Source of the DNA: an uncultured virus (IMG/VR IMGVR_UViG_3300002307_000047) | Lineage: Duplodnaviria > Heunggongvirae > Uroviricota > Caudoviricetes | Direction: 5' to 3' (one strand) | Length of the DNA stretch: 20,000 nucleotides | IMG/VR virus record: IMGVR_UViG_3300002307_000047 | Coordinates: 51,707 to 71,706 of that record | Part shown: one piece after another, positions 376-19,556 of the stretch | How positions within the stretch are numbered: the stretch's first letter is position 1 | Layout of the letters: each line of letters opens with the position of its first letter | Translations under genes and position numbers: made by a program | The notes under the pieces: model-generated | What the model was told of the DNA's origin: nothing | Database searches by the model: none | What the model saw: the letters and a program-made list of their open reading frames with translations, nothing else

Positions 376-383
376 TAAATTTG
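376..383 (+). promoter_or_regulatory. Bacteroidota-type -7 promoter element (TAAATTTG) for the lysis genes
   Basis: Matches TAnnTTTG, 16 nt before the ATG at 400. Confidence 0.45.
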
Positions 384-7436: not shown

Positions 7437-7467
7437 CAAAGTTATAAGTTATTTCGATACCACCAAA
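7437..7467 (-). promoter_or_regulatory. Bacteroidota sigma-A-type promoter
   Basis: TTTG (7467-7464), 19 nt spacer, TAACTTTG (7444-7437). Confidence 0.8.
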
Positions 7468-10949: not shown

Positions 10950-10980
10950 TTTGGTAGTATCAAAAAGCTATCTAACTTTG
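10950..10980 (+). promoter_or_regulatory. Bacteroidota sigma-A-type promoter for the recombination operon
   Basis: TTTG (10950-10953), 19 nt spacer, TAACTTTG (10973-10980). Confidence 0.82.
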
Positions 10981-11000: not shown

Positions 11001-11249
11001 ATGACAAGAATAGAGGTAAAAGAACAACAAAAAGCACTAGAAAAACTGGTGGATGAATTTGGTAAGTATGGGCACGATAAAGCTGCTGGCGGTGCATCTA
11101 CCTATATCATTAAAAAGATGCTTACGGACGCAGCTCCTGACGAATTGACCTTTATTAAGGTGCTTGGGTACTTCCAAGGCTTAAAGGCTGCGAAAGACGT
11201 AGCTATTGAGAAAGCCAAATCAGAATTAGTTCAACCAGTAAAACAATAA
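11001..11249 (+). CDS. Hypothetical protein (possible regulator)
   Basis: 82 aa helical ORF, first gene after the promoter. Confidence 0.7.
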   Translation: MTRIEVKEQQKALEKLVDEFGKYGHDKAAGGASTYIIKKMLTDAAPDELTFIKVLGYFQGLKAAKDVAIEKAKSELVQPVKQ

Positions 11250-14424: not shown

Positions 14425-14512
14425 TGGTGTGTAGCTCAGATGGTTAGAGCACGATAAGCCCTTTAAATGTAGGGGACTGTCGGGGTCGGTGGTTCAATTC
14501 CACCCACATCAA
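14425..14512 (+). tRNA. tRNA-like RNA with an abnormal, extended anticodon arm (no assignable anticodon)
   Basis: Acceptor TGGTGTG/CACATCA, TA, D-arm GCTC-AGATGGTTA-GAGC, stem CGATA/TGTCG enclosing 21 nt, variable GGGTC, T-arm GGTGG-TTCAATT-CCACC, discriminator A; no encoded CCA. Confidence 0.8.
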
Positions 14513-15165: not shown

Positions 15166-16139
15166 ATCTTGAGCTTTTTGAAGTATTCGCTTACCGCATC
15201 TATTGTCCAAATATGGTTTTTTCTACCTGCATCATTTGTTATACACCCATAAATTTCAGAGTTGTATATTTTCCCGCTTGTGTACCTCCTGCCATCACCC
15301 CAACTCATTATAACGTCCTCAACGCACATGAACCTATCTCCCGGCTTTATCTCCTTGATGGTGTCGTAGTATTCGGGCGCGGCTTCGTCTTTGATGATGG
15401 GGCACCAACCTTCACCATCCTTGTATAGGTATGGATTTGAACAAACCTCACCGCTATTATCCCATAATCCACTTTTTGACCAAACGCAACGTATTGTGTC
15501 TATCATCGTAATATCAAAAGTAATTTCACCTCCATCCTTACAGGGCTTCACCTCTCTTATGCTGTTTTTATCTCTATGCACAAGTATTGACTTAAACTTG
15601 ACCCCTAAGCCATAATCACTATAAGCCTTTTTAAGCAGTTCTTCATCGCTCCATGTTGAATAGTCTATCGGCGCGTCTGTTTTGCTCTCTGTGGGCTTGT
15701 TTTCGCGTTCTGTGGCTATGTTTAGTACTTCGTGGTGCAGGTCGTGGAGTTCTTTAAACTCTTTCCTCAGTTTGTTGTACTTATTCAAGATACTTTGATA
15801 CCCTTTAGCCTGAATCTTGTTCGCATCCTCAGCGGATTTTAACTCATCTTGCAGCCTGCTAATCTCAAATCCTAGCTGGATACGCTCTTTGCGCTCGTTG
15901 GCTATCTCTCGGTTAAGGTAGTTTATTTCGACTATCTGAGAGTTTATCTTTGCCATTAGTTCGGTACTTGCTGCAATGGCTGACTTATCAAAGTCGTCGG
16001 TTAGTTGCCCGTATTCCTCTAAGCTCTCATTTCTCAGGTATAGCCGCCACATACCGAATAGTAGTAGCATACATACTGCCGTCATGCCGTAGAATAGACC
16101 ATAAGGGCTTGGATCGAAGTTTAAGTTTTGAATGTTCAT
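15162..16139 (-). CDS. Membrane-anchored coiled-coil protein with globular C-terminal domains
   Basis: N-terminal TM (LFYGMTAVCMLLLFGMW), heptad region at about aa 55-145, then small beta-rich domains. Confidence 0.75.
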   Translation of the reverse strand: MNIQNLNFDPSPYGLFYGMTAVCMLLLFGMWRLYLRNESLEEYGQLTDDFDKSAIAASTELMAKINSQIVEINYLNREIANERKERIQLGFEISRLQDELKSAEDANKIQAKGYQSILNKYNKLRKEFKELHDLHHEVLNIATERENKPTESKTDAPIDYSTWSDEELLKKAYSDYGLGVKFKSILVHRDKNSIREVKPCKDGGEITFDITMIDTIRCVWSKSGLWDNSGEVCSNPYLYKDGEGWCPIIKDEAAPEYYDTIKEIKPGDRFMCVEDVIMSWGDGRRYTSGKIYNSEIYGCITNDAGRKNHIWTIDAVSEYFKKLKI

Positions 16140-16159
16140 GATTATTGTTTTTGGTTTGT

Positions 16160-16228
16160 TAATTCTTAGCTAGTTTACAGCCTCACGGCTGCTATCACTA
16201 TTGGAGGGCTTTAGACCTGTCTGAATTA
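16160..16228 (-). ncRNA. Twister self-cleaving ribozyme, type-P3 permutation
   Basis: UAAUUC-AGAC-AGG-UCUAAAGC-CCU-CCAA-UAGU-GA-UAG-CAGCC-GUGA-GGCUG-UAA-ACUA-GC-UAA-GAAUUA. P3 UAAUUC/GAAUUA, P4 AGG/CCU, P2 ACUA/UAGU, P1 CAGCC/GGCUG, T1 CUA/UAG, T2 GC/GC, with conserved UAA and GA. Confidence 0.85.
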
Positions 16229-16672
16229 CCATGAAGAAGTATAGTAGTAGTCGCCGTCCTCAGATAGGCACGTTTCAACTATTTTTATTGTTTCCTCAAT
16301 ATTCTTAAAATAATACTCGTCATAGTCTGTGCCACCAAAGAAGAACCCCTCCTTTGTGGGTAGTACGGTTGCAGCCTCTGCTTTGTTTTTTAGTGCTTGC
16401 TTGCAGTCCTCAAGGAGCTTTTTAAGGGCAGAATCAGATACGTAGTAATCTTTGCAATCATCCTCTCCATCCTGTACGTTTTCTACAAACCAATTATGAA
16501 TGTGGTTTGCCTTGCGCCAGTACCCAATACTTTCTATTATCTCACTAACGCGCTTTAGGTTGATCTTAATTTCTTCGCCGTTTTTAGTCAGGGCAATTGT
16601 GCCCTCTATTTTCCTATGCTCATAGTTTGCTCCTATGTAGGTTTTCTTGCTTAAATACATGTCTAGTCCCAT
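16226..16672 (-). CDS. Conserved phage protein (MGLDMY...YWRKAN family)
   Basis: MGLDMYL, IGYWRKANHIHNWFV, LPTKEGFFFGGTDYDEYY and YYTSSW match a widespread phage family of unknown function. Confidence 0.8.
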   Translation of the reverse strand: MGLDMYLSKKTYIGANYEHRKIEGTIALTKNGEEIKINLKRVSEIIESIGYWRKANHIHNWFVENVQDGEDDCKDYYVSDSALKKLLEDCKQALKNKAEAATVLPTKEGFFFGGTDYDEYYFKNIEETIKIVETCLSEDGDYYYTSSW

Positions 16673-16698
16673 TTTTGTTTTGTTTATGTGGTTAAAAA

Positions 16699-17022
16699 TT
16701 AGTTTTTGTTATGTTCGTCCTCATGGGCTTGTATCATTTCGTATGGATCACTATAGCATAAATCAAATGACGGTTCAAATCCTTCGGGCGTTTCTTCGCC
16801 GTCCTGCGCCCTTAGCGTTAGGAATCCAGCGCACTCTTTTGTCGTTTCGTGCATAACCGCTTCGCCTTCATCATCGTGGGAGTAGGTGTTATGGCAAGAG
16901 AAGGAACTATATGGATTAGCTGCCATGTATGCGATTCTTTCAGCTACTTCGGGATGTAAAAAAGGCGTAACATCGGTTCTGAAAGGGCAAGTTTTGCAAG
17001 GCTTTTTCATGTAATCTGCCAT
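16699..17022 (-). CDS. Cys/His metal-binding protein (DUF6283-like)
   Basis: PCKTCPFR...FSCH...CAGF. Confidence 0.65.
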   Translation of the reverse strand: MADYMKKPCKTCPFRTDVTPFLHPEVAERIAYMAANPYSSFSCHNTYSHDDEGEAVMHETTKECAGFLTLRAQDGEETPEGFEPSFDLCYSDPYEMIQAHEDEHNKN

Positions 17023-17345: not shown

Positions 17346-17966
17346 TTACTTATTTTCGGGTGAAAAAATATTAAACCAAGCCTTAGCAGTTTCAAAAGCC
17401 ATTACACGCATTTGGCTCTTTTCTGATCCGTCATTCGGAAACTCATTATTGTTGTTCCAGAAATTAGTTTCCCATTCTGCTAGTGATCTGTTATGGCATC
17501 CCATTTTTACGCGCTTTTCTCCCTCCTCTGTTATGTATGGTATAACTGCATAAGTGTATAGCCCCGTAAATACTGCCGCCTTTTGTATTTTCTCGTTTCC
17601 TGTGAGGTCTGCGCCTCTGAGGTCTGCGCCTCTGAGGTATGCGCCTGTGAGGTATGCGCCTGTGAGGTATGCGCCTCTGAGGTCTGCGCCTCTGAGGTAT
17701 GCGCCTGTGAGGTATGCGCCTCTGAGGTCTGCGCCTCTGAGGTATGCGCCTCTGAGGTCTGCGCCTCTGAGGTATGCGCCTGTGAGGTATGCGCCTCTGA
17801 GGTCTGCGCCTATGAGGTCTGCGCCTCTGAGGTCTGCGCCTGTGAGGTCTGTTTTAAGTCTTACCGCCTCTTTAACGGTCTGCAAAACCGTATTGTTTTC
17901 TGATTCATATTCAAAAAGGATTGAGCCAGTTAGGAAATGTTTGATTGCAATTTTGATCTTTGTCAT
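17346..17966 (-). CDS. Pentapeptide repeat protein
   Basis: 17 consecutive pentapeptides, mostly A(D/Y)L(R/T)G, between unique N- and C-terminal caps (VKMGCH...W). Confidence 0.93.
   Translation of the reverse strand: MTKIKIAIKHFLTGSILFEYESENNTVLQTVKEAVRLKTDLTGADLRGADLIGADLRGAYLTGAYLRGADLRGAYLRGADLRGAYLTGAYLRGADLRGAYLTGAYLTGAYLRGADLRGADLTGNEKIQKAAVFTGLYTYAVIPYITEEGEKRVKMGCHNRSLAEWETNFWNNNNEFPNDGSEKSQMRVMAFETAKAWFNIFSPENK
17598..17852. repeat. 15-bp tandem repeat, 17 copies, coding for the pentapeptides
   Basis: Unit TGAGGT(C/A)TGCGCC(T)(C/G) with essentially two variable positions. Confidence 0.95.
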
Positions 17967-18569: not shown

Positions 18570-18612
18570 TCGGCATCATTCACGCAATGCCAAGTGCGGA
18601 GTAATCACACTC
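18570..18612 (-). ncRNA. Putative intercistronic H-type pseudoknot preceded by a small hairpin
   Basis: GAGU-GUGAUU-ACUC, then CGCA-C-UUGGCAU-UGCG-UGAAUG-AUGCCGA (S1 4 bp, S2 7 bp, L1 1 nt). Confidence 0.5.
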
Positions 18613-18623
18613 TAAAACAAAAG

Positions 18624-19556
18624 TTAAGCGGTCATTTTTATTTGCGTCTTGAAAACGAGATTGAAGGCATACAGGGCATTAGCTGTTAACTGTCTTTGCC
18701 AAACTCCCTGCGATGGCGACCATTTAAACGCAATACCTTTTAGATCGGCTATTACTTGCGCGATTGGCTTTTGCTCGTGCCTTACCTGTATTCGGTCTAT
18801 TTCAAAATTCAGTATTACTTCGTATCCTTCGAACTGGTGCGTAATATTGCCGCCTGCCTTCTCTGCTATGGTAGTTTTTTTCTCTGCTGCCTTGAGGTTT
18901 TCTTTTAGCCTCCGGATTGTTGCCCCGTTATTGGTTAATGACCCGTGACAAGTGCAATGAATCAACATCCAAGCGTCAAACCTTTTGGCTTGCTCTATGT
19001 CCTCACTCTTTATCCCTAAATCCAAAAGCGGCTGAGGGTTATCCATCAATTCTACAAATGTATGCTTGCGCTGTAATTTGGCAACTGCTTTAATGAGTTC
19101 TTGCTTTGCCTCCGCTTCTGCTATCTTAGCTTTCAGGTCTTGGATAGGGTCTATTTGTGCTTTAGCTGCCTTTCTAGCCCCCCTCTCAATGGCTGCTATT
19201 ATGCGTGTTCTCCATTCTACAAACTCAGTGTATTTGTTATCTGCCCATCTGTGGCGTTTTCCCTGCTGCCTAACAGGGAAATTAGATCCGCCCGTTATCA
19301 TAGTGCTGGCACATCCGCTTTGTGACGATAACCAAGAAGACAATTTTTGTATGTACTTGGATTTATAGCGGTTTGCCGTGTCGGTATCGCTGATAGATTG
19401 GATGTGCTGAATATCGGCGGTTAACTGGCCTTCATAATCTCTTAGGACTTGTTCAGCGCGTCTCTCAGGGCTGAAAGATGTATTTCTATGGGCGTTATAT
19501 GCTTGGCTGTGCAAATGGCCTAAAACTGGAAATTGATCTTGTAGTGTGGTATTCAT
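18624..19556 (-). CDS. Conserved phage/mobile-element protein (DUF3560-like or polyvalent-protein-associated)
   Basis: TSFSPERR, STMITGGSNFP, LTNNGATIRRLK, N.EIDRIQV and FKWSPSQGVWQRQLTANA are motifs seen in early or leading-region proteins of mobile elements. Confidence 0.65.
   Translation of the reverse strand: MNTTLQDQFPVLGHLHSQAYNAHRNTSFSPERRAEQVLRDYEGQLTADIQHIQSISDTDTANRYKSKYIQKLSSWLSSQSGCASTMITGGSNFPVRQQGKRHRWADNKYTEFVEWRTRIIAAIERGARKAAKAQIDPIQDLKAKIAEAEAKQELIKAVAKLQRKHTFVELMDNPQPLLDLGIKSEDIEQAKRFDAWMLIHCTCHGSLTNNGATIRRLKENLKAAEKKTTIAEKAGGNITHQFEGYEVILNFEIDRIQVRHEQKPIAQVIADLKGIAFKWSPSQGVWQRQLTANALYAFNLVFKTQIKMTA

Follow-up and report, generated by a model that had tools for sequence, protein, structure and literature searches.

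Twisters, the three permutations in which they occur and their link to phage genes are all already in print, as is the proposal that polycistronic messages are processed by them. Bacterial twisters and hammerheads located near phage genes have been proposed to process polycistronic mRNAs (PMC6765202), and type II hammerheads have been described beside phage-like genes (PMC8782182). In RNA viruses, ribozymes lying just upstream of an ORF have been linked to translation initiation (PMC13725137). For the P3 type, crystal structures are available for env22 (4RGE/5DUN) and env9 (4QJH) (PMC6154101). A high-throughput assay of about 2,600 natural twister candidates found about 94% of them active; P1, P2 and P4 withstood imperfections well, deletions included, pseudoknot mismatches other than wobbles were harmful, the general-acid A and the A that follows it were essential, and changes of the general-base G were damaging (PMC11662667). 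In the rice twister, subjected to exhaustive single and double mutagenesis, activity was retained when, for most of the T1 and T2 pairs, another Watson-Crick pair was put in their place (PMC5113685).

Here we report on a 69-nt RNA element filling the spacer between two co-oriented genes of an uncultured freshwater tailed phage, which we consider likely to be a genuine, divergent type-P3 twister self-cleaving ribozyme. The locus resembles the bacterial cases (PMC6765202, PMC8782182) in that a putative small self-cleaving ribozyme lies between co-oriented genes of a phage cluster. It differs from them in its setting, the genome of a free phage, sampled in a lake metagenome and probably infecting a Bacteroidota-type host, instead of a Firmicutes prophage. 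With the RNA-virus ribozymes (PMC13725137) it shares the spanning of a short intergenic spacer and a predicted cut a few to tens of nucleotides before a start codon; those cases are eukaryotic RNA viruses carrying mostly hammerheads, whereas the present element is a twister candidate of a DNA phage.

Genomic context of the candidate ribozyme

The window, i.e., the whole 20,000-nt stretch of DNA that we have analysed, forms the final 20 kb of a viral record of 71,706 bp that has direct terminal repeats. A search of sequencing runs for this stretch retrieved one DNA run from a freshwater metagenome, its possible source, and no RNA run. The genome record (G000:C1) contains 20 single N letters, ambiguous or masked, the first five of which lie within about 49124-49582, outside the window. 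Near and distant blastn comparisons against GenBank phages returned no relative, the sole match being a 24-nt chance one.

The window genes are phage-like and include those for primase/helicase, replication initiator, HNH endonuclease, exonuclease-like and primase-like proteins. The primase/helicase had its best similarity, with 33-37% identity, to proteins of Riemerella, Tenacibaculum and Flavobacterium phages. As judged by eye, the Shine-Dalgarno sequence is absent and the leader A-rich at about 35 of the 36 gene starts. The motif TAnnTTTG, which we take to be the Bacteroidota -7 promoter element, was counted 31 times in the window against an expectation of 19.6 ± 4.5, with none of 200 shuffles reaching 31. 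Based on the primase/helicase relatives, the Shine-Dalgarno-less starts and the TAnnTTTG excess, the host of this phage is probably of the Bacteroidota type. Several copies of the motif lie just 5' of operon-leading genes; examples of the motif are those at 10973-10980 (+) before the gene at 11001, at 376-383 (+) before the gene at 400 and at 7437-7444 (-).

The candidate ribozyme is located in an 86-nt gap inside a co-oriented run of minus-strand genes extending from 19894 down to 14652. The 325-aa product of the gene downstream of it gave no family match and had no relative among the viral contigs; a single homologue was found in a large protein database, with 60% identity and encoded on a 1,583-bp ENA contig. 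A search of the minus strand at 16140-16700 for promoter motifs, sigma-70-like or TAnnTTTG, and for terminator-like sites found none, and co-transcription of the putative ribozyme with its neighbouring genes is likely, judging from the DNA.

Other features of this region were recorded as well. At 18570-18593 (-), where the primase-like gene 18624-19556 is separated from the small gene that follows it, there is a 9-pair terminator-like hairpin followed by UUUUU; at this point, upstream of the ribozyme, the minus-strand block may be divided into two transcription units. The operon of the ribozyme also encodes a 206-aa pentapeptide-repeat protein (17346-17966, minus strand; Pfam PF00805, E = 8.8e-44). 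At 14425-14512 (+), an 88-nt tRNA-like gene scored 46.7 bits with the Rfam tRNA model and is not called by ARAGORN. It has 23 nt where the model has the 9-nt anticodon-loop region, and by eye its anticodon arm is longer than usual, consisting of 5 bp, an internal loop, a further 4 bp and an 8-nt loop; the gene may represent a tRNA that bears an intron or is unusual in some other way.

Structural elements of the candidate ribozyme

A sequence-only reading of this DNA had placed every twister element, in P3-permuted order, on the minus strand between 16228 and 16160. A check of the sequence found each of them at its proposed position (Table 1), along with a perfect P3 of 6 bp that connects the region of the stop codon with 16165-16160. 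Helices P1, P2 and P4 have the twister arrangement. The double pseudoknot of the class is present, with loop L4 pairing both with the strand after the G-A (T1) and with the strand after P2 (T2), and so are its core letters: N-A-A, the general-base G followed by A, and the U and A-A in L4. The permutation is that of type P3, with an open P3 serving as entry and exit and with P1 loop-closed by GUGA. G16196 follows P2 and immediately precedes the pseudoknot A, and from this position it is predicted to be the general base, corresponding to G45 in 4OJI and G48 in env22 (PMC6154101).

Table 1. Features of the candidate type-P3 twister and of its flanking genes, in window coordinates
Feature	Position	Strand	Remarks
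Upstream gene, 148 aa	16226..16672	-	phrog_7971 (function unknown)
Type-P3 twister-like ribozyme, whole, 69 nt	16160..16228	-	From the upstream gene's stop codon to the P3 3' strand
P3 5' strand, UAAUUC	16228-16223	-	16228-16226 is the UAA stop of gene 16226-16672
P4, AGG/CCU, 3 bp	16218-16216 / 16207-16205	-	
Loop L4, U-CUA-AA-GC, 8 nt	16215-16208	-	U16215, A16211, A16210 and strands of T1 and T2
L2 3' strand, CCAA	within 16192..16204	-	Directly before the P2 3' strand
P2, ACUA/UAGU, 4 bp	16174-16171 / 16200-16197	-	
G16196 (predicted general base) and A16195	3' of P2	-	Roles according to PMC11662667 and PMC6154101
T1 pseudoknot, CUA/UAG	16214-16212 / 16194-16192	-	All Watson-Crick
P1 hairpin, CAGCC/GGCUG	16191-16178	-	GNRA loop GUGA; 5 bp, 6 counting a G-U
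UAA cleavage motif (U16177, A16176, A16175)	16175..16177	-	Located via the RF03154 alignment
Predicted scissile bond	U16177/A16176	-	A16176 is the predicted general acid (PMC11662667)
T2 pseudoknot, GC/GC	16209-16208 / 16170-16169	-	All Watson-Crick
Junction UAA	between T2 3' strand and P3 3' strand	-	
P3 3' strand, GAAUUA	16165-16160	-	6 Watson-Crick pairs with 16228-16223
A-rich, Shine-Dalgarno-less spacer	16140..16159	-	From the ribozyme to the AUG at 16139
Downstream gene, 325 aa	15162..16139	-	N-terminal hydrophobic helix, charged helical stretch, C-terminal domain

The minimum-free-energy fold of the 69-mer was exactly P3+P4+P2+P1. Its energy did not differ significantly from that of shuffled sequences (z of -0.9 to -1.4), which is unsurprising for an RNA that relies on tertiary contacts. 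Folding at low Mg2+ may be weak, since two of the T1 pairs are A-U and P4 is limited to 3 bp. Cleavage at the predicted bond would give the downstream gene a 5'-OH leader composed of 16176-16160 and the spacer 16140-16159. The AUG at 16139 was confirmed, in agreement with the 37 nt originally proposed for this leader.

Match to the Rfam twister-P3 model

The Rfam twister-P3 model (RF03154) had been named in the sequence-only reading as a way of checking the assignment. With permissive thresholds, 16226-16162 aligned over model positions 1-73 of 73 with a score of 29.4 bits. The corresponding E-value was 1.7e-4 when 201 nt were searched against all families and 1.4e-5 when the 71.7-kb genome was searched with this one family. 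Against 4227 families over 51.7 kb it was 0.045, the only other match being a tRNA; this all-family permissive scan comprised 51.7 kb, the first 20 kb of the genome being scanned at gathering level only. The best member of clan CL00120 at the site was twister-P3, with one lower-scoring overlapping clan match left out. The check thus yielded a significant full-length match with a score 10.5 bits under the gathering cut-off of 39.9. At gathering thresholds no twister was reported, the window giving only a tRNA and the other 51.7 kb nothing. Rfam's rule would leave the element unannotated; the cut-off is operational and not a structural property of the class.

We have searched other viral genomes with the same model. 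Among 32 distantly related phage records none gave a match at E ≤ 1, and in 48 further viral records the top score was 19.3 bits, with five others at ≤14.8. The background maximum over these 80 records (32 + 48) was therefore 19.3 bits. The locus with this score (L259; G068:C1:36087-36147, minus strand; E = 0.008) could be another sub-threshold twister instead of noise.

The window element and the RF03154 family share the element order, both pseudoknots, the UAA motif, the G-A after P2 and an alignment over the full length. They differ in T1, which is CUA/UAG in the window and U-c-C/G-g-A in the model, and in T2, which is GC/GC instead of GU/AC. In addition, P4 has 3 bp with two positions deleted in the alignment, and the first L2 adenine of the consensus is a C. 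Compared with known twisters, the sensitive positions are all intact in the window element, and it deviates only at positions where variation is tolerated.

Expected occurrence of the structure by chance

As the RF03154 model is unable to score pseudoknot pairing, we have written our own descriptor. It requires the conserved letters and the complementarity of T1 and T2, after which the pairs of P2, P1, P4 and P3 are counted. Four core matches were present in the genome, with the candidate alone having 4, 5, 3 and 6 pairs in P2, P1, P4 and P3, respectively. Simulation of 500 Mb of first-order Markov sequence produced 11,594 core matches, not one of them as good as the candidate. The product of the conditional frequencies gave an expectation of 1.7e-5 such matches per Mb per strand, an estimate that is generous to the candidate because the thresholds were fixed after it had been seen. 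Generous as the estimate is, this chance rate is far too small to explain the candidate.

Scans keeping the T1 letters of the window were also performed. One of them, on viral sequences, returned at least 114 stretches, of which 80 loci with 81 placements were examined. None of these 81 placements, all of which share L4, the T1 strand and UAA-N4-GC, had the helices. Another pattern scan fixed on the window T1 returned 20 stretches, none of them twister-like by eye.

Sister elements in other phages

We have then left T1 and P1 free and kept P2 fixed in the search pattern. This search returned one viral stretch, which was a sister of the window element, and 28 metagenome stretches, four of which were sisters. 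The sisters comprise three distinct sequences on five contigs of other phages: one shared by L178/L254 and L190, a second on L188 and a third shared by L196 and L198. L178/L254 corresponds to the viral record G033, and L190, L188, L196 and L198 are metagenome contigs. The G033 sister matched RF03154 with 34.9 bits (E = 2.4e-7), also under the 39.9 cut-off. Two later viral scans added no new member, one giving only G033 and the other five stretches of which G033 alone was real. Applied to 185,579 prokaryote genomes, the pattern returned 29 stretches, none twister-like by eye, and no prophage copy with the window P2 was found in this set. At 39 loci carrying homologues of the upstream gene (≤55% identity), the stop codon was in no case followed by the element, other sequence being present there.

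On another viral contig (L253, 1501-1561, plus strand) we have observed the same P4/L4 frame with a complementary T1, UCU/AGA, and no P1 or P2. It could be a decayed copy or a chance occurrence.

Conserved structure and covariation

In the sisters P4 is again AGG/CCU, to which two of them add a fourth A-U pair, and L4, T2, P2, the G-A, the P1 stem and the UAA are kept as well. No difference from the window is seen in P2, P4, T2, the P1 stem or the catalytic letters. Their P1 loop is CCGUAA instead of GUGA, and their P3 has 4 bp (GGUU/AACC or GGCU/AGCC) and is directly adjacent, whereas the window P3 has 6 bp and 3-4 nt junctions. The 3-bp P4 had been pointed out in the sequence-only reading as the weak point of its proposal. 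P4 is as short as stated there; it is conserved with a length of 3-4 bp among the sisters, and twisters tolerate deletions in P4 well according to PMC11662667.

T1 is UCA/UGA in the sisters and CUA/UAG in the window, i.e., two of the three pairs are changed on both sides. These are pairs 24-46 and 25-45 of the alignment that we refer to as A1 (U-A to C-G and C-G to U-A). This supported the earlier view of the unusual window T1 as a compensatory change. One P1 pair of A1 is C-G in some sisters and G-C in others, and one P3 pair is C-G in L188 instead of U-A. Two of the three double-sided P3 changes were discounted, as the window P3 is not positionally homologous.

In the five distinct rows of A1, T1 and T2 are paired in 100% of the cells, and the P4 and L4 letters other than those of T1 are invariant. 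U16177, A16176, A16175, G16196, A16195, U16215, A16211 and A16210 are likewise invariant in A1. Over all 103 cells of A1, 98.1% are paired, compared with 17-41% when the partners are slid by 1-3 columns. With four sequences, RNAalifold recovered P3, P4, P2 and P1 unprompted, and the minimum-free-energy fold of each sister had the same architecture as the window ribozyme. The covariation rests on few events, because there are only four distinct sequences, three of them mosaic kin (~85% identity). These few events are exactly those that the pseudoknot model predicts.

An island of homology between stop and start codons

When 2.5 kb of window DNA was compared with the sister contigs, only 16169-16218 aligned on every sister (52 nt, 84.6% identity, E = 1.4e-9). 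In L196/L198 there was in addition a looser alignment of 96 nt with 74% identity (16127-16218), which extends into the leader. The genes flanking the sisters are unrelated to those flanking the window element: tblastn of five flanking window proteins against the sister contigs gave no match at E ≤ 1. The neighbours also vary among the sisters, the upstream gene encoding 140 or 138 aa and the downstream gene 81 or 66 aa, all of unknown function. L188 and L190/L198 are mosaic contigs with ~85% identity in which small genes are swapped on either side of the ribozyme, L188 carrying an extra 66-aa gene and a different upstream gene.

The placement is the same throughout. Every copy abuts or overlaps the upstream stop codon and is followed by an A-rich spacer, with 26-27 nt from the predicted cut to the next AUG in the sisters and 37 nt in the window. 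From these alignments, the island of homology and its stop-to-start placement look like a functional RNA module that is under selection or moving horizontally.

Discussion

The intercistronic type-P3 twister identity put forward in the sequence-only reading is supported by the full-length model match, the descriptor statistics and the double-sided T1 changes of the sisters. Several other explanations have to be weighed against a self-cleaving ribozyme.

The element might be a conserved twister-derived RNA that no longer cleaves itself, or does so too slowly, and that has another role in the spacer, for instance protecting a 3' end as a structure, being recognised by a protein or nuclease, or acting as a spacer in translation. 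We regard this as unlikely. It would fit with the scores of both phage contexts falling under the Rfam cut-off (29.4 and 34.9 bits), with a T1 rich in A-U and with a short P4. However, A+1, A+2, the general-base G, the L4 adenines and the T1/T2 pairing are intact and invariant in the five distinct rows, and compensatory upkeep of the pseudoknot pairing is a requirement of the active fold. The proportion of active molecules among the natural candidates assayed (about 94%, PMC11662667) also argues against a relic that does not cleave.

A farther-reading proposal takes the ribozyme and its A-rich leader together as a mobile intercistronic cassette, circulating among unrelated freshwater phages of Shine-Dalgarno-less (Bacteroidota-type) hosts, with the cut 26-37 nt before the AUG being its function. 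This is a tentative and rather improbable idea. Were it true, the short unstructured 5'-OH end would aid Shine-Dalgarno-independent initiation or block 5'-end-dependent decay, and 3' exonucleases would be kept away from the upstream message by the folded ribozyme and its cyclic phosphate.

Chance resemblance of an ordinary intergenic spacer to a twister is close to refuted, and we give it very little credence. A selection effect is conceivable, the candidate having been picked by eye among about 250,000 windows, and neither a gathering-level match nor a significant fold energy was obtained. Against chance stand the descriptor rate of 1.7e-5 per Mb per strand, the background maximum of 19.3 bits over 80 viral records and the presence of the 52-nt core, at 85% identity and with compensatory T1, P1 and P3 changes, in unrelated phage contigs. 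Equally improbable is that the P1 hairpin acts as a transcription terminator or attenuator, or as an RNase III-type processing hairpin, with the rest being coincidence: a stable GC-rich stem of 5-6 bp with a tetraloop does lie between the two genes, but no U-tract follows P1 (the next bases are UAAACUAGCUAAG), the terminator scan at 16140-16230 listed nothing, a stem of 5 bp falls short of what a double-strand RNase site requires, and the conservation of L4, T1, T2 and P2 would be left unexplained.

Returning to the type-P3 twister, its intact core suggests that it is probably active within the polycistronic mRNA. A minus-strand polycistronic RNA would be made, in which 16228-16160 would fold co-transcriptionally into P3, P4, P2 and P1, the fold being locked by T1 (CUA/UAG plus an A-A contact) and T2 (GC/GC). 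G16196 and A16176 would catalyse the attack of the U16177 2'-OH on the U16177-A16176 bond. Owing to the type-P3 permutation, 52 of the 69 nt, including both hairpins, would stay upstream and 17 nt would go downstream. The upstream RNA would retain the 52 nt of folded ribozyme with a 2',3'-cyclic phosphate at its 3' end, and the gene of the 325-aa membrane protein would gain a 37-nt, A-rich, unstructured 5'-OH leader. It would be reasonable to expect that cleavage separates the fates of the two operon halves, as PMC6765202 suggests for bacterial twisters and hammerheads. Since the 5' strand of P3 holds the stop codon of the upstream gene, a terminating ribosome would open P3, and one may speculate that translation of this gene and folding of the ribozyme interact.

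The knowledge of the ribozyme class itself is left unchanged by the window element. What is new is a small branch of lake-phage twisters with natural T1 variants and a modular stop-to-start placement, a branch that standard annotation misses because both of its genomic contexts score under the Rfam cut-off. The natural variants CUA/UAG and UCA/UGA can be regarded as a compensatory-mutation experiment supplied by nature, and the island of homology between unrelated phages offers a concrete, testable setting in which to study the role of twisters in phage operons.
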